IMG/VR virus record: IMGVR_UViG_3300018080_000123
Coordinates: 32,001-96,000 of that record
Reading direction: 5' to 3' (one strand)
Source of the DNA: a virus
DNA: 64,000 bases
Shown here piece after piece: positions 23,315 through 42,771 of the stretch (position 1 is its first letter; each line of letters opens with the position of its first letter). Made by a program: the position numbers and the translations under genes. Under the pieces are notes generated by a model. That model had not been told where the DNA came from, made no database searches, and worked only from the letters and a program-made list of their open reading frames with translations.

Positions 23315-24781
23315 TTATGAACGCCCAATGTTCTTCACGATACAATTCTTGCGAGGTGTATACATATGAAGAGCACCGTACATCAGCTGCATCCATCGAT
23401 AGTTCGTACCAAGCAATGCAAGGTCGATCTTCATCATGGTAAGAAGCTGTTTGAACGCAAAGTTGTCCTCGTTTACCTGCATGAGGTAAGCTTTGGACAA
23501 ACCAGGCATACTAGCGTTGAAGTCAATATCCAAATCACGGAAGTCACCGTCACCAGCGTGGAAGTTTGCAGGCTTCACGCGGCCGATAAACTCATGATTG
23601 CTCGACCCAGCCTTGGGTGAGCGGAAGATATTGAAATACTGAACACCACTCGGATTCGAACCCGGGAGAATATCCAGCACGACTTTGTCGCCAGCGGCCA
23701 CGGTAACTGCCTTAGCAGCGCTTGCCAACGTTTCACCGTCGGAATACACTGCTGAACACTTATACTCGTAAGCGCCAACGTCAACAGCCGCAAACTGAGA
23801 ACTACCAGAAGCCGGGCTGTTGTCGCCTGAGTTCGCATCCTGAAGGGTAGGGGCCGATTCAGCTGAAACGGCCGCAGCCAACGGAATACGACGAGGACGC
23901 TGGAACACGCCAGACTTAAGGTTGAAAGTACCAGAACCGGAAACGAACTGCTTCACAACGTAACCAGCTTTTCCTTCCATACCGAGCGTATTGATGCGCT
24001 CCTTGGCATAGAAAGCACGACTGAAGTCACTGTGGGCTTTCGTATCCATATACATATCCGTGCACATACCGAAATTGTTGGCCTGAACGAGGGCTGCCTC
24101 TTCGAGGATTTCCTCATCCAAAACCTCTCCACTCTGGAGATCATTTCGTTTGTCGAGGATGATGGTATCTGCGCCACTCAGCACATTGTAACCATCAAAG
24201 GCCTGAGCTTTAAACTCAGCCTGGCTCTCTTTGTCGCCAATCTGCTTATCAATACCGTCGAATTCGAGGCCATTGATTGAACTGTCGGCTGAAAAGAGGG
24301 CTCGCTCAAGCTGGGCCAGAATCCAAAGAGCACCATTCTTGATCTCTCTCTGAACGATCGGACCATGAGCTTGCCTAACCAGCATAACGTCGTGGTTAAT
24401 CTGTTTCTGAACGCCCATGTACTTGATCTGCACCACGTTTCGGTCATAACCGGAATCCGCAGTTGCTGGAGCCGAGGCCATTGTGAAAAATGGAGGAATC
24501 TGGGCGCCATAACTGTTGTTCGTATTCGCTTGTTCAACCGTGTTGTATGCAGGAGTCTTCGGAATATCATTCCAAAGAAGCAGGTGCTTTTGTTCGTGGG
24601 TCACCACTCGGAGGGTCTTATCCAAAGATTCGACCTGGAGAGCGGGAGCACCTGTAAAATCACCCGGAAGAGTATCCGAATAATTTTGGCTTGCAAAGCT
24701 GAGGGCTTTGCTGATTTCTTCAAGAAGCTGGGGAGCATCAGCTCCAAAACCAGTCAATGAAGAAGGATTGCTATTTTGCAT
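23315..24781 (-). CDS. Major capsid protein (SPO1/phage K-like type)
   Basis: 488 aa, downstream of protease and scaffold. N-terminal ISK|AL...ALQVESLD and C-terminal LMYGAL..YTPRK...VKNI. Codon bias of a highly expressed gene. Confidence 0.85.
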   Translation of the reverse strand: MQNSNPSSLTGFGADAPQLLEEISKALSFASQNYSDTLPGDFTGAPALQVESLDKTLRVVTHEQKHLLLWNDIPKTPAYNTVEQANTNNSYGAQIPPFFTMASAPATADSGYDRNVVQIKYMGVQKQINHDVMLVRQAHGPIVQREIKNGALWILAQLERALFSADSSINGLEFDGIDKQIGDKESQAEFKAQAFDGYNVLSGADTIILDKRNDLQSGEVLDEEILEEAALVQANNFGMCTDMYMDTKAHSDFSRAFYAKERINTLGMEGKAGYVVKQFVSGSGTFNLKSGVFQRPRRIPLAAAVSAESAPTLQDANSGDNSPASGSSQFAAVDVGAYEYKCSAVYSDGETLASAAKAVTVAAGDKVVLDILPGSNPSGVQYFNIFRSPKAGSSNHEFIGRVKPANFHAGDGDFRDLDIDFNASMPGLSKAYLMQVNEDNFAFKQLLTMMKIDLALLGTNYRWMQLMYGALHMYTPRKNCIVKNIGRS

Positions 24782-24796
24782 TGATTAATACTCCCT

Positions 24797-25426
24797 TTAC
24801 TTTAACTCTTTAATTGCCTGTTCAACAACTTCTCGATCCTTGGCATCAAGAATCTGAGACGTTGCCTCATAACCACTCAGTGAGGCGCCGGAAATCTTTC
24901 CAGCTTTCCAAAGCTCTTCCATTGTATCAAGAACCTGGGACTTAGAAATTTTCTTTGGTCCCTCATTCTCAGAAGCCGTATGAAATGACTTTTTAACTTC
25001 GTTCACCTTGTCAACCGACTGACGACCGGTCTTAGGAGCGCGAAGGGCTTTAGTCAACTCATTAACAGCTTCTCGGAGATCTTTGATTTCCTCTTGGACG
25101 ACGCTCTGAATCGACTTCTTGAATTCCTCTTCTTTCTTAGCCGACTCTTCTTTTGCCTTCTGCTCTTTTGCAGCTTTCAGCAACTGAAGATCTTCAGCTG
25201 TAATCTCGATGGATTCAGGAGTCTCTTCATCTTCTGAGCCTTCTTCTGACTTCTCAACCTGCTCATCGCCAGTCTCGTCATCAGTAGAATCGGCTTCAGC
25301 CACCTCTTCGTCCTTGAGGTACTCATCGATAAGATCATCGATGGACTTCTCAAGCTCTTCGTCAGTAACAGTTTCGCTGTCCTGCTCTTCAAGCTTGGTC
25401 TTCTCAAGATCAGACATTTTCACCAT
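24797..25426 (-). CDS. Capsid scaffolding protein
   Basis: Acidic coiled-coil directly upstream of MCP, many hydrophobic-x-K-S/A sites. Confidence 0.65.
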   Translation of the reverse strand: MVKMSDLEKTKLEEQDSETVTDEELEKSIDDLIDEYLKDEEVAEADSTDDETGDEQVEKSEEGSEDEETPESIEITAEDLQLLKAAKEQKAKEESAKKEEEFKKSIQSVVQEEIKDLREAVNELTKALRAPKTGRQSVDKVNEVKKSFHTASENEGPKKISKSQVLDTMEELWKAGKISGASLSGYEATSQILDAKDREVVEQAIKELK

Positions 25427-27501: not shown

Positions 27502-29457
27502 CTATTTCTTTCTGGCTTTTTCAATTTCCGCCTTTTTTAAGCTATGCTTAGCGTCCCAACGCCTAAGAAATTCCTTCTCACTGATGTTATACTTTGTTGG
27601 GTTCTTTTTCTTTGCCTCTTGAAACATCTTAAGAGCAACGCCACGATTACTAGCTATTCTCCCAGGCCCGCGATCGGCAAATGCCTGTCTTTGGATAGCT
27701 CTTGCTGACGTCCCTGGACCGGGCTTACGGCCGCTTCCAGGGCCGCCCTTTTCAAAAAGCTTGGCTCGCTGTTTCTTTTTCTCCTGTTCTTTCTTCCAGC
27801 TTTCTCCGGCTCTATATTCAGAAATCTTTTGTTTAGATTCTATTGCTCTATCAACCTTCTTTCCTTGATCTCGCGCTTGATTAAAATGACTGGTAGCTTT
27901 AACATTTTTTCCTTCTGCGACTGCACTGTGGAAATCGGCTAGATGCTCGTGATATTTTGCTTTCTCTTTAGCAATCCCGCTACCAGAAACAGGAGCTCCT
28001 CCCTCAGTGCGACTTGGCTTAGATCTCTTCTCAGCTGCTTCTGCTTCCTTTCTGTGAGCGGCAGCAGCGTCTTTATGATCCTCTTTCGACCAATCATGAT
28101 GATAGCCTACTGTATACCCGCTGTGACCTTTACCGTGTGAGGAATAAATAGGTTTGCCCGACTTCGTTCTTCCTATTACTTTTCCGCCTCTGGAGCCTTC
28201 TCCTGCTGCTTTATCGAGAGCTTCCGAAATCGCTTCAACGATTACGCTTTTAATGAAATGCTTCCTATCTTCTTTACGCGTAACAATTTTGGGCTTGAAA
28301 TCTTCGCCAGGCTGGGCTTGATGATATTCAACGCGAGAAACATGTTCTTGATATGGAATGTGTAAGCTATTAACTGCTTCTTTAAAACGATTTAAGTGCC
28401 CGGGAGTATGAAATGAGTCTCCATGCTCACTAATTATCTTTCCATGCTCATCTAAAAGTTTTTGAATTTTCTTGTACGTCTCGTTAGCATGGCTTTCGAC
28501 AGCATCTCTACCTGGAGCATTATGTTCGCCCGCTCCTCGCTTTTTTCTTGGAGCCTTATCTTTTGCTCCCATGCGACGGGCCTTTTCGAGGACACTTAAA
28601 AGGGTCATTAAATTACTTTTTTTGACTCTTACTGCGCCCGGTGAAGGGGCGGAGGAGGCGACATCCCCTATCACCGGTTGACTAGCCACTGAAGGACTAG
28701 CCAGGGAAGAATCTTCATCTGTATATCCTAAAAGCTCGCCATCCTCCGACTTAGCAAGGGTTGGATTATCGTCGTAAGTAGAAAGCTCTACTGCTTCACT
28801 GTCCTTTTTCTTTTTCTTCTTTTCGCCATCCTGAATTTTATCTGCCTGACTTGCGCCTTCGGCCTGAATCTTTTCTACCTCACCCTCTCCCACACTTTCA
28901 AGAATACAGGCCTTATCAATTTCTTCAATAGTATCTGAGCACTCATTAACTTCAAACCTCTCAACAGATAAAGATTTGGCAATCTCTGCATAAGTGCTTG
29001 TATTGACTGGATCAAGTGTTAAGGCGACTTTCTCCACTCTCGCCCTTGCAATAACGCTCTTATCAATATCGTCTCGTTTAACAATCTTTCCCTCAATTGA
29101 CATTTGCACTCTGTTCTTATCTGCTTTCTTCAACGAGCGCATAATGTTATAGAAGGCCTGAGCGCGGGGTTGGTGCTTAAAAAGATAGCCCTCAACATAC
29201 AACCCGTTCATTGTGTTTTGGGCATAATCGATCTTACCGAGAACATTTTCTGGGCCCTTTTGATGGTCGTTATTAAAAAGTCCTTTTCCGTTTTTCAACG
29301 GACCAATATCGAGCCCCGACTGCTGAACCACTTCACCTTGTAAATCCTTATCACCTGTGGAAGCAATTCCTTTAATGCGCCATTCGTCTTCGTTCTCGCC
29401 TTTGGCGAGCTCGACGGGCACAAAAAATTTGAAGGTGTCTTGGTCGCTTTTCCCCAT
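27502..29457 (-). CDS. Prohead protease with long C-terminal extension
   Basis: IKGIAST...DLQGE, NNDH, MSIEG, VALT..PVN..T in the first ~165 aa; the remainder is modular and basic. Confidence 0.85.
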   Translation of the reverse strand: MGKSDQDTFKFFVPVELAKGENEDEWRIKGIASTGDKDLQGEVVQQSGLDIGPLKNGKGLFNNDHQKGPENVLGKIDYAQNTMNGLYVEGYLFKHQPRAQAFYNIMRSLKKADKNRVQMSIEGKIVKRDDIDKSVIARARVEKVALTLDPVNTSTYAEIAKSLSVERFEVNECSDTIEEIDKACILESVGEGEVEKIQAEGASQADKIQDGEKKKKKKDSEAVELSTYDDNPTLAKSEDGELLGYTDEDSSLASPSVASQPVIGDVASSAPSPGAVRVKKSNLMTLLSVLEKARRMGAKDKAPRKKRGAGEHNAPGRDAVESHANETYKKIQKLLDEHGKIISEHGDSFHTPGHLNRFKEAVNSLHIPYQEHVSRVEYHQAQPGEDFKPKIVTRKEDRKHFIKSVIVEAISEALDKAAGEGSRGGKVIGRTKSGKPIYSSHGKGHSGYTVGYHHDWSKEDHKDAAAAHRKEAEAAEKRSKPSRTEGGAPVSGSGIAKEKAKYHEHLADFHSAVAEGKNVKATSHFNQARDQGKKVDRAIESKQKISEYRAGESWKKEQEKKKQRAKLFEKGGPGSGRKPGPGTSARAIQRQAFADRGPGRIASNRGVALKMFQEAKKKNPTKYNISEKEFLRRWDAKHSLKKAEIEKARKK

Positions 29458-29503
29458 CGTTTCTCCAGATTTATGAACGGATTTGTAGAGTGGTCAATAT
29501 TTA

Positions 29504-29536
29504 ATTATAGTATAACATGGGGTATTTTTTAAATTA
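29504..29536 (-). promoter_or_regulatory. Candidate late promoter TAATTTAA-N19-TATAAT
   Basis: Upstream of the prohead protease operon. Confidence 0.55.
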
Positions 29537-29547
29537 AATTGTGCAAA

Positions 29548-29880
29548 TTAGTTATCACCAAACTCGCCTAGCTCTTTCATAATCTTGACAATCTGTGTCC
29601 GGAAGTTCTTCTTTGCCTCTTCCTCACGCAAAGCAATATTGTTGATCGATGTTGCCGTCAACTTGGCCACCTCTTCCAATGTATGTTCTCTTCCATTGTC
29701 CAACATATATTTGAAGAAGCAATAGTTGGCCTTTCGATCATCCACATACCAAACACACTCATTCTTGGCACAAGGTAGGACATTAAACCGGCCTGATTTC
29801 ATCTTCTCAGCCTTCCGCCTTCCCATGCTACAAACCCGAGTAGGATACTTATCCAGTTTTCGAGGACATCTCTGATCCAT
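29548..29880 (-). CDS. Sigma-70 region 4-like HTH protein with Cys-rich N-terminus
   Basis: EHTLEEVAKL..TS..NI...E..A..NFR. Confidence 0.6.
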   Translation of the reverse strand: MDQRCPRKLDKYPTRVCSMGRRKAEKMKSGRFNVLPCAKNECVWYVDDRKANYCFFKYMLDNGREHTLEEVAKLTATSINNIALREEEAKKNFRTQIVKIMKELGEFGDN

Positions 29881-29965
29881 TTGACAAAACCTATAATTTG
29901 TCGGGAATTTATCTGGCCTATTTATGACACATTAATAGACCACTAATGGCCACTAATATCAAGTA

Positions 29966-30238
29966 TTAATGACGGAGCCACCAAAATCTTTGCCCAGCTT
30001 CTTCATTTTGCATAACCCAGCGATCAAGAACATTTTCTCCATCACACTTCTCGCATACGAGAAAATTAATACAGCTTCTAGATACCGCATAAACCCAGCG
30101 CCAAACATCTCCTACCTCAAACCTATGACCACACATATAACATCGAAAACCATCTCCACTCTCTCTCGGTCCCCATTTTGCTTGAACATCTTTTTCTGTT
30201 GCAACTCTAGGCTTCTGATCTACAAAGCTAGTAGTCAT
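29966..30238 (-). CDS. Hypothetical zinc-finger phage protein
   Basis: CYMCG...CEKCD. Confidence 0.5.
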   Translation of the reverse strand: MTTSFVDQKPRVATEKDVQAKWGPRESGDGFRCYMCGHRFEVGDVWRWVYAVSRSCINFLVCEKCDGENVLDRWVMQNEEAGQRFWWLRH

Positions 30239-30255
30239 TTTTATCTCCTGTATAG

Positions 30256-30522
30256 CTACTCTGCAGCTGACTCTTCTTTTTTCTTCTTCTGTATAACGGG
30301 GTTTTCTTCGTTATAAATAGGCAAACAAGTTCTACACATCCAATATCGTTTATCTCTCGTTTTCCTCGTCTTTCTAGGTTTCCCACATCCATCACATTTG
30401 ATATTGGCTATTGCACGTCTGCGATAGAATCTAATAAGCTCAAATGCTCCTTCTGCAGCTATTCCTGCAAAGAAGATTATCATAAACCATATGGTGTACT
30501 CTATCATAGATTCGGCCGGCAT
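30256..30522 (-). CDS. Membrane-anchored zinc-finger protein
   Basis: N-terminal TM, CDGC...CRTC. Confidence 0.45.
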   Translation of the reverse strand: MPAESMIEYTIWFMIIFFAGIAAEGAFELIRFYRRRAIANIKCDGCGKPRKTRKTRDKRYWMCRTCLPIYNEENPVIQKKKKEESAAE

Positions 30523-30524
30523 TT

Positions 30525-30797
30525 TTATTTCTTGTAATCCTCTAAGATATGGCCTTTCGTTGCCAGGTAATCTGCAAAACCTGGATCTATTTGTCCAAGC
30601 ACGTATACACTCCCTGACTCAGTTCGGGCTGTCAACCGCTCGGGGTCAAACTCTGTCACATTCGATGTAATGATTCGCTTTCCATTCTCAAAATTTGGAT
30701 TCCCATGAACCTCCCCTGCAAGAGCCCTTCGCCACTGCTCGGGGGCCTTGTACGGATCACCAATTGACACTACAAATGACCAATTCTCTAACTTCAT
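30525..30797 (-). CDS. Conserved hypothetical phage protein
   Basis: LENW...PY.APE...G.V...F.NG..I.TS...T.SGS.Y.LG. Confidence 0.6.
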   Translation of the reverse strand: MKLENWSFVVSIGDPYKAPEQWRRALAGEVHGNPNFENGKRIITSNVTEFDPERLTARTESGSVYVLGQIDPGFADYLATKGHILEDYKK

Positions 30798-31026
30798 CCT
30801 TTTCCCCTCCTAATACTTCTCCGGTAACGTGTCAAGCTCTGGGCTACAGCCACAGCACTGCGTATCCCCACTTAAGGCAAGATCTGTCTTTTCTGACAAA
30901 TTCCTGAGAAATTCAATCAACCCTTTCTTATTAAATTCCAGATCAGCGAGCTCTCCATTATTATAATGAGCTTTAACTAGCCCCTGTTCAATGGCCCAGT
31001 CCCAAATGTTCTGCCCTTCATCTTTT

Positions 31027-31239
31027 TTATACTTGTTTGTCATCGTCTTTCTCCTTATCATCAAAAGACTCTTGATACGAAATATGAGCAACATGAACGC
31101 CTTCACTATAGAACGTTTTAACGCTTCCTATCACAGCTCCTTTTATCTCAAGAATTTCTACAATTGCCCGCTCCAGCCTATCTTCAAATCCAATATCGTG
31201 CTCATCTCTTACAACTTTAATTCTAAAAACGCGTGTCAT
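31027..31239 (-). CDS. Hypothetical protein
   Basis: Coupled ORF. Confidence 0.4.
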   Translation of the reverse strand: MTRVFRIKVVRDEHDIGFEDRLERAIVEILEIKGAVIGSVKTFYSEGVHVAHISYQESFDDKEKDDDKQV

Positions 31240-31907
31240 TTTTCCACTCTCCTCTTATCGATCTTCTCTAAAATCTTACTTTTATCCTCGCAATATTTGT
31301 CCCAGTGTTTGTCACATAGACCTATCTTTCCAAGCTCCGGTACCATTACCCAACATTCCAGCTGCATCTTACAATACTTAACACTACACCTCAGATCTTT
31401 ATCTTCATAATCTTGAAAAAAGCCTTTTTGAGCAGTGCCAGCAAATTCTGCTTCAATGTTTTGCCTATACAATTCTGCCGCTCCCTCCAGCGCATATCCT
31501 CTTTCATATTTGTACTTTCCCTCGTATGCTCTCTCCATCAACTGTTCCCCAACCTTGTCAACATATCTCTCCGCTCTTAATCCAATTTGTTTTGCTACAT
31601 CATATGTCAAAGATCTGTTATGATACCGAGCAAACTTTCTATCTAACTTACACTGCCAGTGTCCAAGCTCATGGAACAGGTGATTTAAAAATCGCTCTAC
31701 ATTCGTAAAACGACCCTTAGAGTCTCTCATGCTAATTTTGATTTCTTTTGTCTCCAGATTGATCATAGCACCGCCGCATGTCGTCCAATCAAAGATCAAT
31801 CCCAGCCCGCTTCTCAAAGCGATATCGATTCCTTTAGCTACATCTGGATGTTTCAAAAATCTATTCACAATCCACCTTTGTGAATCCGCCCGTAAAACTA
31901 ATCGCAT
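31236..31907 (-). CDS. Zincin-like (ImmA/IrrE-like) metallopeptidase
   Basis: FHELGH with downstream AERYVD; C-terminal Cys cluster. Confidence 0.6.
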   Translation of the reverse strand: MRLVLRADSQRWIVNRFLKHPDVAKGIDIALRSGLGLIFDWTTCGGAMINLETKEIKISMRDSKGRFTNVERFLNHLFHELGHWQCKLDRKFARYHNRSLTYDVAKQIGLRAERYVDKVGEQLMERAYEGKYKYERGYALEGAAELYRQNIEAEFAGTAQKGFFQDYEDKDLRCSVKYCKMQLECWVMVPELGKIGLCDKHWDKYCEDKSKILEKIDKRRVEK

Positions 31908-32223
31908 ATCCGAGGCGGCGATCTCTTTCTTTCCTTTTCCAGTTAACTCTCCTCACCTCTCCATATACTCTAAACGTGCTAGGTCCATACCAATTAGGAT
32001 GCTTCAGTTTGACAAAAAGAACAACCTCCGCTCGAGGCCTAATCTTAATCTGATCCTCTTCTTTCACAATGATAAAGCAACCGCCAACGTTAAAATCATA
32101 TACCGACCCCTTAGCAACTATCGTTCTAGTTTCCATATCCATCATTGCTGCATTACTGCCAAGGAAGGTGAGAAGTCTGGGTTTCTTTCTTTTCTCTTCT
32201 TTATTTTCCATCCTCTGTTCCAC
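31861..32223 (-). CDS. Stand-alone PilZ-domain protein
   Basis: EKRKKPR (RxxxR), YDFNVGGCFI (variant of D/NxSxxG), GEVRRV and LGYAISF strands. Confidence 0.75.
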   Translation of the reverse strand: MEQRMENKEEKRKKPRLLTFLGSNAAMMDMETRTIVAKGSVYDFNVGGCFIIVKEEDQIKIRPRAEVVLFVKLKHPNWYGPSTFRVYGEVRRVNWKRKERDRRLGYAISFTGGFTKVDCE

Positions 32224-32243
32224 TTTAAACCTTTACCTCTCTA

Positions 32244-32606
32244 TTATACATCATCATCATATCTTTGTCTGGTTATCCAACTAGCTACTTTTGAGATTAT
32301 CTTTTCCATGGCGCCCGATTCGTGACAAACCAACTCTAAGTAATAATCATGGTGATATTCTTTCAAGTCACTAATGATCATAAAAAGACTAAAATAAGGA
32401 TCAGGCTCTTCTGCTTCTAACTCATAATAGTACAAAATATCAAGAGCATCAATGATCGGAAGAGACATCAGATCGGCGATATAAGACTGTCTGTCTTTTT
32501 GCAAGATCTCTTGAACCTCTCCAATCATCCGCTCAAGTTTCCTCTCTTTATAAGTCCTGAGATCAGTTACTGGTTTTTTCGGATCCATGCCTGTAATTCC
32601 ATTCAC
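32244..32606 (-). CDS. Hypothetical protein
   Basis: Overlapping ORF in the DGC operon. Confidence 0.45.
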   Translation of the reverse strand: MNGITGMDPKKPVTDLRTYKERKLERMIGEVQEILQKDRQSYIADLMSLPIIDALDILYYYELEAEEPDPYFSLFMIISDLKEYHHDYYLELVCHESGAMEKIISKVASWITRQRYDDDV

Positions 32607-33258
32607 GCTTAACCGCAGCCAAAAACTCTTTCACCGTTTGCCAGCGGGTCATTTCTCTGCCGGATGTTTTCACAAAATAAACGGGATAATGAATATAAAT
32701 CTGATATAGATTATCAAAATAAGCATAAATTTTGTAGGGACCTTCATAAAACCAAGTATTATACCACTTCCACTCGGTTTTTCCTGGTGTTAGAATTCCA
32801 CAATAAGCAAGGTAATCCAAAACTCTTTCTTCTCGAACTTTTTGCATCTCCTCTCTCACTTCCTCATACGGCCTATCACCAAACAATTCAGGAGTAGCTG
32901 TGCTCCAAACCGGTTTTCGATTTTTCATCTTCTCTTTGTGCTTTTTAGACATTTCTTTTTCATCCGCAACTTCAAAAGGAAAAACTCTTAAATCGTGCTC
33001 ATAATAGATCTCGATGTCTGAGCCAACGAGCTCAGCAATTTTTCCTAACCAATTACGATCTTTATCCAGATCGACATCTCCATACCAAACGACCTCGCCA
33101 TCGACTACTACATTTGAATTATAAACTGCCATTGCCGGCCCTCGACTTTTCGATGCGCTCACAAGACGCCCCGGACGACCGAGAAGAATACTCAAAATTG
33201 CTCCAGGGTCTTTATCTGAACACAGAGCTTGAATCTTTTTTTTAATTTTTGTTCCCAT
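32563..33258 (-). CDS. Hypothetical phage protein
   Basis: GRLVSASKS...VYNSNV...VWYGDVDL. Confidence 0.55.
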   Translation of the reverse strand: MGTKIKKKIQALCSDKDPGAILSILLGRPGRLVSASKSRGPAMAVYNSNVVVDGEVVWYGDVDLDKDRNWLGKIAELVGSDIEIYYEHDLRVFPFEVADEKEMSKKHKEKMKNRKPVWSTATPELFGDRPYEEVREEMQKVREERVLDYLAYCGILTPGKTEWKWYNTWFYEGPYKIYAYFDNLYQIYIHYPVYFVKTSGREMTRWQTVKEFLAAVKREWNYRHGSEKTSN

Positions 33259-33451
33259 TTTTTCTCTCCTCTATTTCGTTAAGCCGACATAACCAAGTAA
33301 ACAGCTTAGCAATTCGACATTCATAAAGAGCTATCCGCTCTAAATTTCCTGGTCTAGCTCTTTCAAGCGGATCCCAGAAAAGCTTATTTATTTTTTCTTG
33401 AAGCTGGTCTCGTTTTCTTATTACCATTGCTTTCATTGGATGAATGTACAT
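33242..33451 (-). CDS. Hypothetical protein
   Basis: Overlaps the DGC 3' end. Confidence 0.4.
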   Translation of the reverse strand: MYIHPMKAMVIRKRDQLQEKINKLFWDPLERARPGNLERIALYECRIAKLFTWLCRLNEIEERKNGNKN

Positions 33452-34079
33452 GTCTAATCACCCCATGGCCATAGCCTTCATGGCTAAAATCCATAATTGT
33501 AGTAAATACTAATGAATCTTTTTTTTCTTTAGCGATATACATGCCCCGATCAGCCGCTGTAATTAGCTCTTCTGCTTTGTCTCCTTTACTATATGATACA
33601 ACCCCCATACTGGCCGTAACCTTAATTGAATCATACTTAAACCTCATTTTCCTGTGGAGACGTTCGTAAAAATCAGCTGCTTTGTTAGGAGATTTGTTTA
33701 AGCTAATCACAACAAATTCTTCTCCTCCCCAGCGAAATGCCTTATCATAGGATCGAGTTTGCTGACGTAAAGTTTCTCCTACTTTTTTAAGAATTTTATC
33801 TCCTACTGCATGCCCATGAGTGTCGTTGATCTGTTTAAAGTTGTCCAAATCAATAAAACCAAGAGATAAAACTCCACCAATCCGATCGCATTGGTTGGTC
33901 AACTCTTCAAAATACCTATAGAAAGACTTGCGATGATGCAAACCTGTAAGCTCATCGCAAAAACTAATGCCAAATTTTTCTAGAAAATCAATGAGTTTTG
34001 TAGCGAGAATGAGCGAACAATCGTTTTTGTGCTCATCGATAAATAGAGTCAGTTCGCCTGTGAAATTGTCCTTTTTCAT
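33384..34079 (-). CDS. Diguanylate cyclase (GGDEF domain)
   Basis: DELTGL, DLDNFKQINDTHGHAVGD, I-site RSYD, RWGGEEF, ADRGMY.AK. Confidence 0.92.
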   Translation of the reverse strand: MKKDNFTGELTLFIDEHKNDCSLILATKLIDFLEKFGISFCDELTGLHHRKSFYRYFEELTNQCDRIGGVLSLGFIDLDNFKQINDTHGHAVGDKILKKVGETLRQQTRSYDKAFRWGGEEFVVISLNKSPNKAADFYERLHRKMRFKYDSIKVTASMGVVSYSKGDKAEELITAADRGMYIAKEKKDSLVFTTIMDFSHEGYGHGVIRHVHSSNESNGNKKTRPASRKNK

Positions 34080-34092
34080 AGCTCCTACTTAT

Positions 34093-34121
34093 ATTATAGT
34101 AGACCTCTATCAAAAAGGCAA
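34093..34121 (-). promoter_or_regulatory. Sigma70-type early promoter TTGCCT-N17-TATAAT of the DGC operon
   Basis: Consensus boxes followed by AGGAG RBS and the DGC ATG. Confidence 0.7.
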
Positions 34122-34150
34122 GCTAAATTTTTATGAGAGATTCCAACAGG

Positions 34151-34345
34151 TTACACTAAACTTAGAAAATCCCCCTCAGAAATCTTCTTTCCTGCTGCTA
34201 ATCTCTCTAAATACTGGGCAGCTAACGTTCCGATTTTTACGTTATTTTCTACCCAATGATAATCATCAACCTTGCGAAAAACGCGTTTTCGAGTCCCATT
34301 GCTTGTAACTTGCTTAATGACTATCACCAAGCCTCCTTCCATCAA
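34151..34345 (-). CDS. Hypothetical protein
   Basis: Coupled ORF. Confidence 0.4.
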   Translation of the reverse strand: MMEGGLVIVIKQVTSNGTRKRVFRKVDDYHWVENNVKIGTLAAQYLERLAAGKKISEGDFLSLV

Positions 34346-34635
34346 CAGTCCTTCTTATTTCTTGTATCAAAATAGTTTAAAATTCTATCATAAACAATCT
34401 CTTTCTCTTTCTCTAGTAGGCTTTGTCGTCTTATAAATTCATCGCTTGTTCGTCTATAATATTCGATCAAACTCTTAGTCAATCTATCACTAAGATCTGC
34501 TAACTGAATCATCTTAATGGAAGGGCTTTGGCCTTCGGCTGTAAGAAGCCCGTTCCTCTGAGCGGACAGTTTCTCAATTCGTCTAATTATATCTGAGATC
34601 TCTCTTAAGTAATTCTCATACAGAGGAATCATCAT
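34342..34635 (-). CDS. Hypothetical helical protein
   Basis: Coupled ORF. Confidence 0.45.
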   Translation of the reverse strand: MMIPLYENYLREISDIIRRIEKLSAQRNGLLTAEGQSPSIKMIQLADLSDRLTKSLIEYYRRTSDEFIRRQSLLEKEKEIVYDRILNYFDTRNKKDC

Positions 34636-34816
34636 CCGGGTCCTCTAATCTCACAACAGGTTTCAACTCATGAAGGCCCTTCTCGCTAAACAACGTTACG
34701 AGATAAATATCGTCGTATTTGACAACCGCTTCTTCAGCTTCTTCTTTAGTTGTAAACAATAAATAATGCGGATCTTTCTTAAAAATCACACAATAATGAA
34801 ATTTTTCTTGCTTCAT
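34616..34816 (-). CDS. Hypothetical protein
   Basis: Coupled ORF. Confidence 0.4.
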   Translation of the reverse strand: MKQEKFHYCVIFKKDPHYLLFTTKEEAEEAVVKYDDIYLVTLFSEKGLHELKPVVRLEDPDDDSSV

Positions 34817-35643
34817 TTGTTTTCTTCCAAAAATTTAACAATCTCCTTGTGGACAATCATCCACCCAATACTCGTAGGAGATTGATAGTTTCCAAAAAGA
34901 CCGGCAAAAACCAAACCGGACAGCTCTCCCTTATCATTAAAGACTCCCGACCCGCTATTGCCTGGATAAATGGGAGCCGAAATTAGTCGCGCTTCCGAAC
35001 CAAGAACTTCAGCATAGCTTCCGACCCTTCCTTCGGCGACAGAGCCAAAAATTCCAAGAGGATTTCCGACAACAAAGATCTGATCTCCAAACTTAACTGG
35101 CTCTTTAGCAATCTTAACAGGGGTAAGTTTTTTTCCCTGCGAAACCACTTTTAACAAACACAAATCTGCTAATGACGATTTTCTATGAACTTTTGCATAT
35201 AGATAGCTTGTATGTTCGGGGCTCTTAAGAGCCAAACGAAAGAACGTGCCAGGGGCTCTTTTATTAGCCGCCATATCGCAGACATGATTATTTGTTAACA
35301 CTAGATCGGGACTAATTGCAACCCCCGTACCAAAACCAACATTTGTCATCTCTACTCTCACAAACCCTGCCGATGGTTTATCAAGATATCCTTTTGTCGT
35401 ACTTTCGGGCCCTTTAGTAGGAAACTTAATAGTATTCCTTTGAGGAATCATATTTCTGCCAACAGGATGTTGTAATGTTATTCCTTTTACAGTATGATTA
35501 ACAGGAGTAGAGAGGGTCGAACGATCAATAAATTCGTCCAATTTAACAATTGTAGCGACATTTAATAGAAACATCGCCACCCCCGCAGCCAAATAAAAAA
35601 CCACCAGTCCGATATTAAGAATTCGCGCAATTTTACTCAACAT
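34813..35643 (-). CDS. Membrane-anchored trypsin-like (HtrA-type, no PDZ) serine protease
   Basis: LTNNHV, DLCLL, PGNSGSG triad; N-terminal TM. Confidence 0.9.
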   Translation of the reverse strand: MLSKIARILNIGLVVFYLAAGVAMFLLNVATIVKLDEFIDRSTLSTPVNHTVKGITLQHPVGRNMIPQRNTIKFPTKGPESTTKGYLDKPSAGFVRVEMTNVGFGTGVAISPDLVLTNNHVCDMAANKRAPGTFFRLALKSPEHTSYLYAKVHRKSSLADLCLLKVVSQGKKLTPVKIAKEPVKFGDQIFVVGNPLGIFGSVAEGRVGSYAEVLGSEARLISAPIYPGNSGSGVFNDKGELSGLVFAGLFGNYQSPTSIGWMIVHKEIVKFLEENK

Positions 35644-36502
35644 TTGTATCTCCTTCTTGATTTTCTTTTTTCTCATTACTTTCTTCCCCAGCAATCTGAC
35701 TCAATACTTCTTCAGTGTTATCAAACTCTTTTTGTAAAGGCTCATACTCTTCTTTTTTAATCTCAACTGTGATCTCTCCTCCTGCAGGAATGCTAATCCT
35801 GTCACATAGAGCCTTGTATAGCTTTTTCAGCTCGCTTGGTTTGGGAAGATTATCAAAGGTCCTTTTTCTCGGTCCTTTTCGGTAATTCCCTCTTTTTCGA
35901 TATTCAACAATCTCATCTATTAGCCCTAACTCGAGCGCTTCCTCTGCCGAAATAAAAATATCTTTTCCGGTACTAGTCAACCTATCATAAAATTTCTTAT
36001 CGGGATATGAATTATCGGCATAAACTTGATTCAATTTTGACTGAATCCTTTGCTCTTCCTCTTGATATATTTTTTGATCCGCTAGCGTTCTGCAACCTGG
36101 GTCATTAGCTCCCTCATGTAACAGGACCCTTGTAAGCTTAGACAAATATCTTTCATCGCAACAGCACATAATCCATGTAGCAGAGCTTCCTACGTGGCCT
36201 TTCCCATAAAATACAAACTTACAGCGAGTTTCTTGAATAGTGTCATGAAGAGCCATCATTGACTCTGCGCATCCGCCATAAGAATTCATATAAATAGTGA
36301 TTGGTTTGCTACTCATCTCCTCCATGAGATGAATTCCCATAATAGCTACTTTAACTGAATCCTGATCAAAAGCGTTATAGCTGACTTCTTCGTCGTCAGG
36401 CTCTTTATCCGTTGGTTTACCAAAATAGATTTTTCTATGAATAACATCCACACCCCATTTCATTAGATTGTCAAGCCAGTCAGCGTCTTTTCTTGTAGAC
36501 AT
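35633..36502 (-). CDS. ClpP-like protease
   Basis: IYMNSYGG, GSSA (Ser), LLHE (His), DIFISAEEALELGLIDEI. Confidence 0.85.
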   Translation of the reverse strand: MSTRKDADWLDNLMKWGVDVIHRKIYFGKPTDKEPDDEEVSYNAFDQDSVKVAIMGIHLMEEMSSKPITIYMNSYGGCAESMMALHDTIQETRCKFVFYGKGHVGSSATWIMCCCDERYLSKLTRVLLHEGANDPGCRTLADQKIYQEEEQRIQSKLNQVYADNSYPDKKFYDRLTSTGKDIFISAEEALELGLIDEIVEYRKRGNYRKGPRKRTFDNLPKPSELKKLYKALCDRISIPAGGEITVEIKKEEYEPLQKEFDNTEEVLSQIAGEESNEKKENQEGDTNVE

Positions 36503-36510
36503 AACGCCTC

Positions 36511-37833
36511 CTATTTCTTGTGTTCTAGCTCTAAATCATAAATTGGAATGATTTTATCTAACTCCTTGTTATTATCTACTTCTTTACTAAACTGAACTCG
36601 CCTAATATCTCCGCATGGATGTTTTTTTGTAGACTCCACGATTGTCTGAGATGAAATAGCGTAGTTGATACTTAGTGAGCTTGCAAACGGATCTTTTCCG
36701 GATAATGTCGAATTAACAACAACATCGATTCCATTTTGTGTTTTAGCTTTTAGCTCCTGGTGAACGTGCCCTGCAAGAACGCCAGCAATAGGAGGATTCC
36801 CCTTTTTAATTTCTCCAGTATTAAATGACTCTATTTGATGTGTAAGGGCTTTAAAATTAATTGACTTCCCGGGAGCAGAAATAGCTGAAAATACCGTATC
36901 TCCGTGAACACCTATCAGACGACCACCAATCGTATCAATCATCACATACTGTGTTTTAGGAATAACGAATTTAACCCGACCAGCAAAAATCAACGATAGG
37001 GCATAATAAACGGGATTAATTACGCTATCATATTTTTGTTGGTTAACTCTATTTCCGCCCTCTCTACGAAATGGCCAGTCTTCATGATTGCCAGGAATAC
37101 CATAGAATACAATCTCATCAAAAAAATTCAAAAGATACGAAATCATATGAAACAAAACATGTAGGGCCCCGTTCATTTGATGAACAATAAGATCAGTATC
37201 AATTCCCGTCTTGTTATGAATCTTACCATGATTAATATCGCCTAAAGAGGCTAAGTGAAGTTTTTTGGTGGCTGCCCTATGGGCAAGTTTATAGTTAGCA
37301 ATTTCCTGGGCAAAGAATGCGCATCTCCTGCAGCCCTCTGTCCATCCAAAACTATTTGAATTCCCGACTTCATTACTATCGACCTTGAGACCAAGATGCC
37401 AGTCTGAAAACGGAGCAACCAACTCTCTTTTTTCTACAGTAGGGGCTTGAATCTTTTTAAGAAATCCTTTTATTTCTTTCTTATTAAGAACAACCGGACT
37501 TAACTTAAGATTTTTGATTGACTTGGCAAACTCTTCGGTCAAATAGGCCATTTCATAATCTTCAAGAATATTTTTTCTTTGAATTGAGCGTGCAAGACTC
37601 CTATATTTATTTGCAACAATTGTTTCTGATGTTTTAAGAGTCTCTCCCAAATCAACCGCTTCTTCAAAAGCGACGTTCCATCCTCCGAAGAATTTTCTGA
37701 TTAAATGGTCTGATAAACCGGCTGAAACAAACTCTGTCTTCGTTGGCCGAGATCCTTTCAACTTATGTAAAGCAACTATCTTCTCTAGAATTTCTTTTTT
37801 GAGCTCTTTATTGCTTTTTTTCTTCATCCTCAT
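36511..37833 (-). CDS. Metallophosphoesterase with N-terminal HTH-like domain
   Basis: SDWH, LGD, GNHE, HGD, GHVH. Confidence 0.75.
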   Translation of the reverse strand: MRMKKKSNKELKKEILEKIVALHKLKGSRPTKTEFVSAGLSDHLIRKFFGGWNVAFEEAVDLGETLKTSETIVANKYRSLARSIQRKNILEDYEMAYLTEEFAKSIKNLKLSPVVLNKKEIKGFLKKIQAPTVEKRELVAPFSDWHLGLKVDSNEVGNSNSFGWTEGCRRCAFFAQEIANYKLAHRAATKKLHLASLGDINHGKIHNKTGIDTDLIVHQMNGALHVLFHMISYLLNFFDEIVFYGIPGNHEDWPFRREGGNRVNQQKYDSVINPVYYALSLIFAGRVKFVIPKTQYVMIDTIGGRLIGVHGDTVFSAISAPGKSINFKALTHQIESFNTGEIKKGNPPIAGVLAGHVHQELKAKTQNGIDVVVNSTLSGKDPFASSLSINYAISSQTIVESTKKHPCGDIRRVQFSKEVDNNKELDKIIPIYDLELEHKK

Positions 37834-38113
37834 CTCCGCAATAATTAAAAATGATATTATCTGGCCTCATAGCCAGATAATCCTTGCCTTCTATATTAAT
37901 TGTGTAAATTTTAAATTCATCGAGCTCAGCAAAGCAGACTCTTTTTCCCATAAGCTTAGAAATAGCTTCTTTAGGTTGTATGAATCCCGACACCTTTACA
38001 ATCGTCCCTTCGTTGTTGTTTTGCTCTTTAGGCATAATAAGCCCTTTTTGCTCAGGGGCTTTATCTTTCTCAATAATAAGCCATCCATTCCAGACATCAA
38101 TATTATTTAGCAT
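37808..38113 (-). CDS. Co-chaperonin GroES-like
   Basis: GLIMP...EGTIVKV...IEGKDYLAMR..NI. Confidence 0.65.
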   Translation of the reverse strand: MLNNIDVWNGWLIIEKDKAPEQKGLIMPKEQNNNEGTIVKVSGFIQPKEAISKLMGKRVCFAELDEFKIYTINIEGKDYLAMRPDNIIFNYCGDEDEEKKQ

Positions 38114-38927
38114 CTTCCTTCTCCTGCTTTACGCGAATATTAAGAACTTCAACATCAAAATCAACTTCTTTTCCCGCCAACTGTTCGTCTGCGTAATCTT
38201 CAGGAAAAACAACATGAATTACTCCAGGCTTATTCTTTTCTGCACCAATAAGGGCCTGTTCAAACCCTTCAAAAACCTGCCCGGCTCCGACCTGAATCAG
38301 CTCATTATCGTTAGATCCTCCCTCAAACTCAACGCCGTCAAGTTTGCCCACATATTTTAGATTAACAATGTCCCCCTCTTCAACGGGACGATCGACTTCA
38401 ACCAAATTAAGCTTTTCATTGACCTGCTTTTCAATTTCTCTCATCTTATCTTTTTGAAGATCGTTGATTTTATCAACCAAAGCCTTCTTTTCTTTTTTCT
38501 CGCTTTCTTCAAGATCTTCAACAGACATACACTTTTCTGGATTAAGACTAAGCAAGATTTCTTTCACCCAAGCCATCTCTCGGACCAGATATTCTTGAGT
38601 CCCTGCAATTTGCAAAGTAAGATCCGCAACAGCTCTGTTCAGCTTAGTTGTGTTTTCCGATACATAGCTGGTAGTATTAGCAATAATCTTCCTAAAATTC
38701 ATATCCATTTGAAGAACATCATTACCTAAAGCCTGAACGATAGCTTGAAGTCGTGCAACGGGGATAACAACAGCTTTATCTCTATATCCTTTAGCAAGAG
38801 GCTCGTTTTTTGCTCCAGCTTTTTGAAACCCGCTCTGCTTCACATTCTGTTCGGCTTCATCGGCGGCCTTATCGTGACTCTCTTTCATTTGCTCAGCTTC
38901 CTTTTTGAGCGCTTCTTCATTTGTCAT
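38103..38927 (-). CDS. Coiled-coil protein with trigger-factor-type FKBP PPIase domain
   Basis: VDRPVEEGD.V...Y.GK.DG.EFEGG...GFEQALIG...FPEDY....LAGK...F.V. Confidence 0.85.
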   Translation of the reverse strand: MTNEEALKKEAEQMKESHDKAADEAEQNVKQSGFQKAGAKNEPLAKGYRDKAVVIPVARLQAIVQALGNDVLQMDMNFRKIIANTTSYVSENTTKLNRAVADLTLQIAGTQEYLVREMAWVKEILLSLNPEKCMSVEDLEESEKKEKKALVDKINDLQKDKMREIEKQVNEKLNLVEVDRPVEEGDIVNLKYVGKLDGVEFEGGSNDNELIQVGAGQVFEGFEQALIGAEKNKPGVIHVVFPEDYADEQLAGKEVDFDVEVLNIRVKQEKEDAK

Positions 38928-38938
38928 GGAGATTCCTC

Positions 38939-39355
38939 CTACTTAATATTTTTGTTATCTTCTTCTGTTTTATTTTCAACTGAATAATTGTTCTTTTGTC
39001 TGTCCATATTAACGCGCCATTTCTGCATATAAAGATCGTAAAGCTTATCTGCATCAATTCCATTTGATGTGCAAATGTCGAGCATAAAAAATAGCAAATC
39101 TGCAATTTCAACATTGATATTCTGTTTTTGAGATTCCAGCAGAGCAAAACGATTTTCTCTTCCTTCCTTACTCCACCACTTCCAAGCATAGCAATCTTGA
39201 AGCTCAGATAACTCTTGTCGAAGAGCTTGAATCAAATCAATAGTCCACTTACCGACTTCATTAGGAGATAGGTCTTTTAGCATGTCGGTTCCGCGACCAA
39301 TTGCTAATCTGAGCTGTTTCTGTTTATCAAAAATATCTTTCAATTTGTCACTCAT
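38939..39355 (-). CDS. Dimeric dUTPase / MazG-like NTP pyrophosphatase
   Basis: ELSEL...WKWW, EIADLLFF, K..VNMDRQ..NY. Confidence 0.8.
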   Translation of the reverse strand: MSDKLKDIFDKQKQLRLAIGRGTDMLKDLSPNEVGKWTIDLIQALRQELSELQDCYAWKWWSKEGRENRFALLESQKQNINVEIADLLFFMLDICTSNGIDADKLYDLYMQKWRVNMDRQKNNYSVENKTEEDNKNIK

Positions 39356-39840
39356 TTAACTTCGCTCTCCTCAACGACTGTTTTTTGACCGTTAGGAAAT
39401 TTAACAACTATCTTCCCATTTCGCCTGGCCATAATTTTGACTTTTTGATTATTGTAGATTCCCTCTCCAATTCCGTCTCTCAAAGTCTGTCCTAGAACAC
39501 CAGCAAAACCATCCTTGGGAGACTCAGGGAGAGAGGTTTCTTTCTCGGAAGATCCAATATTACTCAACACTCTGCTGGCCAAATGTTTTAAAGCAGAAAC
39601 CTCTTGCTCAGTAAACAAAATTTCAATTTGTTGAGCGCTAGAAGTGGTTCTATCAGTATCAATTTCTTCAATGCGCCTATTGGCATAATCTTGAATTTCA
39701 TTTGACACTTGCTCTTTAATCTCTTTTGGAAATTGCTTACCATTAAACTTAATAGAAAGAGACTTAAAAGCTTGAATTAATTGAAGTTTTGTGCGTAACT
39801 TATTAAGAGTAATCTCTGACTTGAGTTGTTCTTGCGACAT
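39352..39840 (-). CDS. Hypothetical protein
   Basis: GGAGG RBS; SH3-like C-terminus. Confidence 0.5.
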   Translation of the reverse strand: MSQEQLKSEITLNKLRTKLQLIQAFKSLSIKFNGKQFPKEIKEQVSNEIQDYANRRIEEIDTDRTTSSAQQIEILFTEQEVSALKHLASRVLSNIGSSEKETSLPESPKDGFAGVLGQTLRDGIGEGIYNNQKVKIMARRNGKIVVKFPNGQKTVVEESEVK

Positions 39841-39865
39841 GTTTGCCTCCTGTCTTCATTATACA

Positions 39866-40765
39866 TTATCGCTTACGTTGATGATGATAATGTATATAAT
39901 CGGGGCCAACATATTCCATTTTGTCTTTTTCGGTGAAGCCCCAACCTTTTGGTAGTTCAACCAATCTATCTCTACAATTTGGATGAGTTGATCCAACCAC
40001 TGGCTTCCACTCCGAAGCCTTCCTCCCATAATTTGTCCCATTTCTCATGAGATCGGTGAGCCGATATATTTTCGGAGTCCCGTCGGGATTAACATAAAAC
40101 TTTCTACAATAAGCGCAAAGAGCGGCGTCTCTAACAACCAACTTATAGACGTATGTTTCTTCGAGTTCTTGTTTCCCTTTATTTCTTTTTACAATAGCGT
40201 CCGCTGCCCCATAAGATTGAGCGTTATTCATTTCAGTAACTGCTACTCTACTCCAATCTCGCGCGAAGTCCCCAGTAGCTTCCCTCAGGTCTTTAACAAT
40301 CTCTTGAATCTTCTTATCTTCCTCTATCGCGGTAACAAAAGCCGGCCTAATCCCTTCAGTCTGAATTATATTTCTGTATTCAAAATTTCCATCTCGAATT
40401 AGCCCTTCAACTTTTTGCTGAAACTGAGAGGACAGCTTTTGAACTGTCTGAGCCACGTTCTCTTTCACATGATCAACGGCATGTTTTTCAATATCACTAA
40501 GAGAAGGCTTTGGTTCTCTAATCTTCCAATCCTCGTGATCTACTGGGCCATACTCATACCCTTGAACGTTTCCTCGGGTCATCCCAGTTTTATAAGAATC
40601 AGCGATATAATCTTCATTTTTAGCAGTATCAAATCCTAGATCCTTTAACTCCTTAATTTCTTCATCAGATAGTTGATCGGGCCCTAGAGTACTTAGAATA
40701 AAATAATTATGTCTTATCCTAATTCTCTCTTTAATGGCTTCAATTTTTGATTTATCAACAATCAT
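39866..40765 (-). CDS. MuF-like minor head protein
   Basis: RVAVTE, C..C, HPNCR; downstream of portal. Confidence 0.75.
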   Translation of the reverse strand: MIVDKSKIEAIKERIRIRHNYFILSTLGPDQLSDEEIKELKDLGFDTAKNEDYIADSYKTGMTRGNVQGYEYGPVDHEDWKIREPKPSLSDIEKHAVDHVKENVAQTVQKLSSQFQQKVEGLIRDGNFEYRNIIQTEGIRPAFVTAIEEDKKIQEIVKDLREATGDFARDWSRVAVTEMNNAQSYGAADAIVKRNKGKQELEETYVYKLVVRDAALCAYCRKFYVNPDGTPKIYRLTDLMRNGTNYGRKASEWKPVVGSTHPNCRDRLVELPKGWGFTEKDKMEYVGPDYIHYHHQRKR

Positions 40766-40983
40766 TAATAATTTCTCAACTCATCAATAATATCTTGAAT
40801 TGATCTTTCAATCACGTCTTTTGCATATTGAGCGGACCACTTAAGTTCAATATCTCTCAACACCGGATCGTCGAACCTACTCGGATGAGCGTTTTCTGCT
40901 TTTTCAGAAAGAGCTTTAACAAGCTCCTCTTCAACAGACTCAGGAGTCTCTCCGGGTTCCAAAATGATTTTAATCTTAGCCAT
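40765..40983 (-). CDS. Small protein between portal and MuF
   Basis: Coupled ORF with LVKA site. Confidence 0.5.
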   Translation of the reverse strand: MAKIKIILEPGETPESVEEELVKALSEKAENAHPSRFDDPVLRDIELKWSAQYAKDVIERSIQDIIDELRNY

Positions 40984-42739: not shown

Positions 42740-42771
42740 ATTATAGCGGAATTCCATACAACTTTAAATTA
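42740..42771 (-). promoter_or_regulatory. Candidate late promoter TAATTTAA-N18-TATAAT
   Basis: Upstream of the portal gene. Confidence 0.55.

Follow-up and report, generated by a model that had tools for sequence, protein, structure and literature searches.

Positions 31236-34121 of a 64,000-nucleotide stretch of viral DNA (the window; bases 32001-96000 of the 113,606-bp virus record IMGVR_UViG_3300018080_000123) hold, on the minus strand, a compact cassette composed of a promoter, a gene for a GGDEF protein, three open reading frames (ORFs), a gene for a candidate PilZ protein and a gene for an HExxH protein, which is where the original prediction, made from the letters alone, had put them. 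The cassette thus joins a gene for a putative diguanylate cyclase, the enzyme that makes cyclic di-GMP (c-di-GMP), to a gene for a putative receptor of the same second messenger. In bacteria, c-di-GMP governs the choice between swimming and settling, and controls the flagella, pili and surface sugars that serve many phages as receptors. Indirect disturbance of c-di-GMP by phages is known, and some phages carry a cyclase gene. Here, we describe the genes of the cassette, their conservation and their genomic setting, and weigh whether the phage brings both halves of a c-di-GMP signal into its host.

Results

The first gene of the cassette (33384-34079, minus strand) encodes a protein of 231 aa whose assignment as a GGDEF protein is confirmed by hidden Markov models (HMMs), with 132.5 bits against PF00990 (E=1.6e-38, cut-off 23.8) and 141.2 bits against TIGR00254 (cut-off 37.4). 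The domain spans residues 40-187, and since it is preceded by only about 40 residues and followed by a basic C-terminal tail, the protein has no sensor. Alignment of the window protein with 13 homologues (14 sequences) revealed that it keeps the invariant columns D77, K82, N85, D94, R116, GGEEF at 118-122 and K184, which we take to correspond to the catalytic residues of PleD. An RxxD inhibitory site (I-site), R109-S-Y-D112, which not every member of the family has, lies exactly five residues ahead of GGEEF, and the specificity position, D94, is the Asp of c-di-GMP-type enzymes and not the Ser of the Hypr type. All of the features originally predicted for this protein, namely a sensor-less GGEEF domain with intact metal and substrate residues, the RxxD motif and the specificity Asp, are therefore present, and the protein looks catalytically competent from its sequence. 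It is the product of the only GGDEF gene in the phage genome, in which neither EAL nor HD-GYP domains were found, and a search of the window with Rfam found no c-di-GMP riboswitch. It follows that the PilZ protein is the sole recognizable reader of the signal.

That candidate reader is a stand-alone protein of 120 aa (31861-32223, minus strand), whose GTG start codon at 32223 aligns with the ATG of its orthologue. Near its N-terminus is an RxxxR motif (R12-K-K-P-R16), which reads R-S-K-P-R in P0002, a 76%-identical orthologue, and 26 residues after R16 is a second motif, D43-F-N-V-G-G48, a spacing that is canonical. The second motif is itself canonical in the homologues, being DFSAQG in P0002 and NISSDG in P0003, a 42%-identical metagenomic protein of 95 aa. 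The AlphaFold2 (AF2) model, with a predicted local distance difference test score (pLDDT) of 75, is a barrel of six strands, in which the N-terminal arm with the RxxxR motif is disordered and of low confidence; a flexible RxxxR arm is also a feature of apo PilZ proteins. When the model was compared with the PDB using Foldseek, the first 17 matches listed were all PilZ domains (Alg44, BcsA, PA0012, MotI and YcgR; template modelling (TM) scores of 0.47-0.58 by query length), the best of them being Alg44 (E=2.5e-3, TM 0.53-0.58). With VIA-align, the first 26 matches were likewise PilZ domains, with Z scores from 9.6 (MotI, root-mean-square deviation 3.7 A over 95 residues) down to 7.7, while other split barrels in that list reached Z 7.4 or less. 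In addition, 26 of 30 feature matches in the ESM Atlas were PilZ clusters (score 0.95). Judging from these models, the protein is very probably a diverged PilZ-fold protein and a predicted c-di-GMP receptor. The best viral structural match to the model was BFVD entry S5VYD7 (114 aa; Foldseek E=5e-3, TM 0.52-0.55), which on the strength of its predicted structure may be another phage PilZ-fold protein.

Several properties of these two proteins argue against a functional cyclase and receptor pair. In the GGDEF protein, KKD takes the place of the usual GRN phosphate-contact motif, the sole departure from the alignment, and no dimerization domain was recognized in residues 1-40. Together with the absence of a sensor, this would be in keeping with a protein that is not an active cyclase in vivo and serves instead as a GTP- or c-di-GMP-binding regulator, or one that depends on a partner, in which case the cassette would not raise c-di-GMP. 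We consider this very unlikely, given that every invariant catalytic residue of the 13 aligned homologues is retained, GGEEF, D77, N85, D94 and K184 included, that the gene is under strong purifying selection, and that the closest homologue, P0006, and two others are also without GRN.

For the PilZ candidate, the Pfam PilZ profile (PF07238) scores 14.4 bits (E=0.05) in the window protein and 17.0 bits (E=0.0075) in its orthologue, against a cut-off of 22.5, and the domain was not picked up in a first genome-wide profile scan. The window copy has Asn in place of the Ser of the (D/N)xSxxG motif. The family has three known members, and the gene call of one of them, P0003, starts past the position of RxxxR; an exhaustive HMMER search of 1.84 billion representatives returned P0003 as the sole further homologue, and in viral and genome contig collections no relative was found except in one metagenomic phage. 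A profile of the three members, run against PDB sequences, gave only chance-level matches (E~1) and no PilZ chain, and hhalign against the PilZ proteins of Bacillus phage SP-15 and Listeria phage LIS04, a pair considered further below, aligned the motif region only (E=0.22). Moreover, some PilZ-fold proteins, such as the Xanthomonas PilZ, do not bind c-di-GMP. The RxxxR and DFNVGG of the original prediction are present, and the fold model favours the stand-alone PilZ protein that it proposed. In the HMM comparison, both Pfam matches cover profile positions 2-86 of 102 and remain below the cut-off, which marks a limit of detection and not a trait of the structure.

These observations give some room to a different account, in which only the cyclase acts through c-di-GMP, by way of host receptors, and the barrel protein is an adaptor that needs no ligand, or does something unrelated. 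Apart from the sub-threshold scores, the Asn substitution and the want of a sequence-level match to solved PilZ chains, this would be consistent with the wide occurrence of the split-barrel fold, which is common to FMN-binding and tail-tube proteins (Z ~7), and with the persistence in LIS04 of a PilZ homologue with degenerate motifs. Nevertheless, both full-length members of the family keep RxxxR, all three members retain the D/N and the G of the second motif, and the Ser that the window protein lacks is present in both homologues. PilZ domains also rank above other split barrels in every structural list, and the gene is linked to a cyclase gene in two phages. We regard a ligand-independent PilZ protein as unlikely, though not so unlikely that it should be left aside.

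Between the GGDEF and PilZ genes are three ORFs, all on the minus strand and as tightly packed as was originally described: one of 69 aa (33242-33451), which overlaps the 3' end of the GGDEF gene by 68 nt, one of 231 aa (32563-33258), with a 17-nt overlap, and an acidic one of 120 aa (32244-32606), with a 44-nt overlap. None of the three has a match in Pfam, PHROG or NCBIfam, and a search of the ESM Atlas with the product of the 231-aa ORF gave no usable match.

The last gene of the cassette (31236-31907, minus strand) overlaps the PilZ gene by 47 nt and encodes a protein of 223 aa that contains H79-E-L-G-H83 and a C-terminal Cys-rich segment; the HELGH motif and the cysteines are also present in an 82%-identical orthologue. 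The protein scores 17.0 bits (E=0.0067) against WLM (PF08325, cut-off 26) and 15.0 bits against MPTase-PolyVal (PF18818, cut-off 27.5), and the orthologue behaves similarly (17.2 bits, E=0.0058, and 14.2 bits, respectively). Since these scores are sub-threshold, we file the protein in neither family and refer to it only as HExxH zincin-like. Of the HExxH peptidase that had been proposed to overlap the PilZ gene, then, the overlap and the motif stand, whereas membership in a peptidase family does not. A search of the PDB with the zincin sequence found no relative, and the AF2 model (pLDDT 36.5) is too poor for a judgement of the fold. A predicted complex of the PilZ and zincin-like proteins with two c-di-GMP molecules scored 0.20 against a mark of 0.32, a value that counts neither for nor against an interaction.

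The cassette is not confined to the window phage. In a second metagenomic phage (loci L001/L002, with the orthologues in L002), the six cassette genes occur in identical order, within a longer gene order that runs exonuclease, ClpP-like, trypsin-like, three small ORFs, GGDEF, three unknowns, PilZ, zincin, small ORFs and prohead protease. The 69-aa ORF is conserved there, and identity to the second phage is 80% for the GGDEF protein, 67% for the 231-aa ORF, 77% for the acidic 120-aa ORF, 76% for the PilZ protein and 82% for the zincin-like protein. For five of the genes, the pairwise ratio of nonsynonymous to synonymous substitution rates (dN/dS) is 0.05-0.13 at dS 0.9-2.1 (GGDEF, 0.12; 69-aa ORF, 0.07; 231-aa ORF, 0.125; PilZ, 0.13; zincin, 0.055). 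In the acidic 120-aa ORF, the proportions of nonsynonymous and synonymous differences are 0.13 (pN) and 0.75 (pS), and its synonymous sites are saturated, hence no dN/dS ratio is given. All six cassette genes are real and under purifying selection in two well-separated lineages, and their recurring order, taken together with these ratios, marks the cassette as more than a product of chance. Searches of 50,697 phage records with the cassette DNA (blastn) and with the PilZ protein (tblastn) found no match. A further locus, L005, encodes a ClpP-like protein that is 39% identical, and was rejected as a relative of the cassette since it is not syntenic and is without PilZ.

Upstream of the GGDEF gene is a sigma70-like promoter (34093-34121, minus strand) of the form CTTGCCTTTTT-N12-CTATAATATAAG, with a -35 box TTGCCT, a 17-nt spacer and a -10 box TATAAT, downstream of which come a ribosome-binding site (AGGAG) and the start codon of the GGDEF gene. 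This is the promoter that the original prediction had placed before the gene, and TTGCCT-17-TATAAT is identical in L002 although the flanks vary. The pattern, which we term class B, has two copies in the 113.6-kb genome, at window positions 34121 and 18657, the latter lying in an intergenic position on the coding strand ahead of another group of small unknown genes. A second pattern, class A, reads (T/A)AATTTAAA-N17/18-CTATAAT and has four copies, at window positions 42768, 29533 and 1175 and at genome position 10152, two of them ahead of the portal and prohead-protease genes and the others at two further sites. All copies of both promoter-like classes lie between genes on the coding strand; the plus strand has neither pattern. 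Genome-wide, 12 of 30 sigma70-like matches on the coding strand are intergenic, compared with an intergenic fraction of 12% (p=1e-4), with the caveat that a promoter scan of a 10-kb region was not enriched overall (28 matches against 23.2 expected from shuffles).

As read from these patterns, the promoter of the cassette is of a type that differs from that of the surrounding head genes. A separate promoter class fits separate timing of the cassette, without showing that it is expressed early. The early operon of the original prediction is not supported; the cassette is located inside the head-morphogenesis region, and what can be said is limited to the difference in promoter class. No terminator-like site was found after the zincin gene in our scan, the only such site on the minus strand inside the cassette is weak and lies within the PilZ gene, and the fold of 31150-31260, across the zincin stop codon, is no more stable than that of shuffled sequence. 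The transcript of the cassette probably reads through to the small ORFs beyond it. A 110-aa protein (29548-29880, minus strand), encoded immediately before the class-A promoter of the prohead-protease gene, has weak matches to sigma-70 region 4 (RpoD; E=0.012-0.066), and it might redirect -35 recognition towards class-A promoters.

That the window is phage DNA, as was originally proposed, is confirmed by the complete genome to which it belongs. The record has direct terminal repeats, is rated 100% complete and carries nearly all of its genes on the minus strand. Its head module genes match PHROG families 12, 1028 and 752; they include those for the major capsid protein (23315-24781, minus strand; ~31% identity to SPO1-type Bacillus phages), the prohead protease (27502-29457, minus strand; domain 35-41% identical to SPO1-, CP-51- and Bastille-type phages) and the portal protein (40983-42707, minus strand; 37-40% identity to Herelleviridae). 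Large terminase and family-specific DNA polymerase genes were identified as well, by PHROG and tblastn searches. At such identities, the window phage is classed from its proteins as a distant relative of the Herelleviridae, outside any named genus. The phage genome yielded neither a tyrosine integrase nor a serine recombinase, which fits a virulent phage, and the phage is complete and probably virulent. The single sequencing run with the phage is a sediment metagenome (DNA), which may be the source itself, and no RNA run with it is listed. As to the host, there are three hints of Desulfobacterota, all of them weak: the named nearest homologues of the GGDEF protein and the ESM Atlas neighbours of the PilZ protein both lead there, and a phosphoribosyl pyrophosphate synthetase (14033-15001, minus strand) shares 53-55% identity with the enzymes of Geobacteraceae and other Deltaproteobacteria, compared with ~50% for other phyla, the last being a weak hint to either the host or a gene donor.

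The cassette is part of an 11.5-kb accessory island (29458-40982, minus strand) between the portal and prohead-protease genes. In Herelleviridae relatives, the protease gene directly follows the portal gene, whereas the window phage has these 11.5 kb of accessory genes between the two. The island also encodes a Mu-F-like head protein, many small ORFs and a protein-handling run on the minus strand, which contains an FKBP-type prolyl isomerase (38103-38927; PF00254, E=1.9e-12), an SbcD-like exonuclease with an HNH-repeat N-terminus (36511-37833), a ClpP-like protease (35633-36502) and a trypsin-like serine protease with an N-terminal membrane helix (34813-35694). The ClpP-like, trypsin-like and zincin-like proteins make three proteases besides the prohead protease.

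The location of the cassette between the portal and prohead-protease genes raises the possibility that its products are capsid cargo; that is, the cyclase, and perhaps the PilZ and zincin-like proteins, would be packaged into the prohead, where the prohead protease would process them, and would leave together with the DNA on ejection, to act before phage gene expression. A putative cut-site motif, [LIVMF]xK[SAG], is indeed enriched in the long C-terminal extension of the protease (27502-29457; 14 sites against 4.3 expected), as it is in a scaffold-like ORF of 209 aa (24797-25426, minus strand; 8 against 1.2). The cassette proteins, however, show no such enrichment, with 1 site against 1.4 expected in the GGDEF protein, 1 against 0.4 in the PilZ protein and 1 against 1.0 in the zincin-like protein, and the lone site of the GGDEF protein falls inside the catalytic domain. 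For this reason we rate the cargo explanation as improbable, and it is also at odds with a promoter class unlike that before the portal and protease genes, and with the absence of any fusion to a head protein.

Discussion

We interpret the locus as a promoter-led accessory cassette of the "moron" type that supplies both halves of a c-di-GMP signal in a virulent phage, a reading to which we give a probability of roughly 0.55. It is supported by the arrangement of the six genes, which are packed or overlapping behind a single conserved promoter, and by phage SP-15, an independent parallel with both a cyclase and a canonical PilZ protein. Once the cassette is transcribed, the sensor-less GGDEF enzyme, having no input domain to await, would condense GTP into c-di-GMP, and the RxxD I-site would then limit the cyclase by its own product. 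The single-domain PilZ protein would bind c-di-GMP via RxxxR and the (D/N)x(S/N)xxG motif and, when loaded with ligand, would act on a partner protein in the manner of an adaptor. To judge from MotI, YcgR and MapZ, that partner would belong to the motility, pilus or secretion machinery of the host. Another product of the cassette is an equally open choice, for which the zincin-like protein, with its overlapping gene, is the obvious candidate. The infected cell would be pushed into a high-c-di-GMP, sessile state regardless of its own receptors. The effects put forward in the original prediction, namely a shut-off of motility or receptors, the timing of development or interference with immunity, are likewise possible outcomes.

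A version of this scheme that turns inward is conceivable, although we hold it to be rather unlikely. Here the circuit would be self-directed: the cyclase would be a clock that fills during infection, and the bound PilZ protein would switch a phage protein, such as the translationally coupled zincin or one of the three unknowns, thereby timing a step of development or host takeover. If true, no earlier second-messenger circuit would be known that a virulent phage both owns and reads, and such a circuit may have evolved repeatedly, in the window phage and in SP-15.

Another possibility is that the cassette serves in counter-defence, with the cyclase product competing with or mis-triggering host immune signalling and the PilZ-like protein soaking up a host signal in the manner of known phage sponges. 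Sponges and nucleases with which phages attack cyclic-nucleotide immunity are known (PMC12657218), and the zincin-like protein bears a faint resemblance to the MPTase-PolyVal peptidases found in phage conflict proteins. On the other hand, Asp94 is the residue of c-di-GMP-specific enzymes and not the Ser of the Hypr GGDEFs that make cyclic GMP-AMP (cGAMP), and the cassette has no match to a described anti-defence family in the libraries scanned. PilZ domains are c-di-GMP receptors, and we know of none that acts as an immune-signal sponge. A role in counter-defence therefore seems to us very unlikely.

Returning to the supply of both halves of the signal to the host cell, the consequences would be considerable if the pair works. 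The virus would install a complete signalling path that is independent of host sensing, which would be a new kind of host takeover, and such a path could explain superinfection exclusion, the retention of infected cells in biofilms or the timing of infection in sediment communities.

The original prediction knew of no described lytic-phage system with both parts, a claim that needs correcting after a check of GGDEF-bearing phage records for PilZ. Bacillus phage SP-15 (KT624200.1) encodes a PilZ protein, SP15_170 (gp170; L011:4762-5115), and a stand-alone GGDEF protein, SP15_150 (gp150; L007:5926-6477). SP-15 gp150 has an N-terminal membrane helix, GGEEF and a REED I-site and is encoded among sugar genes, while gp170, at 117 aa, has RRDAFR and DISATG, scores 31.3 bits against PF07238 and carries a GenBank note that names PF07238/PilZ. 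In the SP-15 paper, the cyclase appears only in a figure legend and PilZ is never mentioned (PMC5977210), and among open-access papers and preprints we found none on a phage-encoded cyclase and PilZ pair. Like the window phage, SP-15 is a large phage with a sensor-less GGEEF cyclase that has RxxD, a single-domain PilZ protein with RxxxR, both genes on one strand, and no EAL; the second motif of its PilZ protein is a DxSxxG. It differs in that the two genes are 15 kb apart, compared with a 2.9-kb cassette in the window phage, with annotated terminators in the stretches read between gp150 and gp170, and in that its cyclase is membrane-anchored and encoded amid sugar genes and its PilZ protein passes the Pfam cut-off. 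No similarity was detectable between the PilZ proteins of SP-15 and the window phage, from which we conclude that the two cyclase and PilZ pairs arose independently; a homologue search seeded with the SP-15 PilZ protein returned only itself. As SP-15 is in culture and has a pair of its own, the idea is directly testable in Bacillus subtilis.

Listeria phage LIS04, a relative of SP-15, has a PilZ homologue (L012:4980-5294) and lacks a GGDEF gene. Its PilZ homologue has lost both motifs, with NFAALFH for RxxxR and SISYNG for DxSxxG. Set side by side, SP-15 and LIS04 amount to a natural experiment on a small scale, in which retention of the motifs goes with the presence of a phage cyclase.

Phage GGDEF genes have been annotated before, in Yuavirus, in Bordetella phage LK3 (Vojvodinavirus) and in at least 8 PHROG families, and phage genomes with a GGDEF gene have been thought to affect host biofilm or motility (PMC8471281). 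These are mostly temperate siphoviruses for which no phage reader is reported, whereas the window phage looks virulent and has a PilZ-type reader in its cassette. One GGDEF match labelled "Escherichia phage" (H41) was discarded, since it belongs to flanking E. coli chromosome (DgcM) and is not a phage gene. Phage products through which c-di-GMP rises in the infected host are also on record, in the Yip peptides of Pseudomonas phages (PMC8085984). These peptides work through the host cyclase YfiN, to which they bind, whereas the window phage encodes its own putative cyclase and receptor.

Among known receptors, the PilZ candidate is most like MotI/DgrA (5vx6), the PilZ domain of Alg44 (4rt0), MapZ (5xly), YcgR (5y6f) and PA0012 (8u0i), with which it shares the barrel (VIA-align Z 8.4-9.6) and the N-terminal RxxxR arm; where they have (D/N)xSxxG, it has a related motif with one substitution. 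As in MapZ and PA0012, the domain stands alone and would thus have to act by binding a partner. It is set apart from these receptors by an identity of 7-22%, by a score below the Pfam cut-off, by the Asn in place of the motif Ser and by being encoded in a phage. Altogether, the families to which the parts belong are well known, and phage cyclases are known at the level of annotation; the novelty lies in a compact and conserved cassette, led by its own promoter, in which a predicted cyclase is joined to a putative receptor in a probably virulent phage, and in recognizing that SP-15 has an independent pair.

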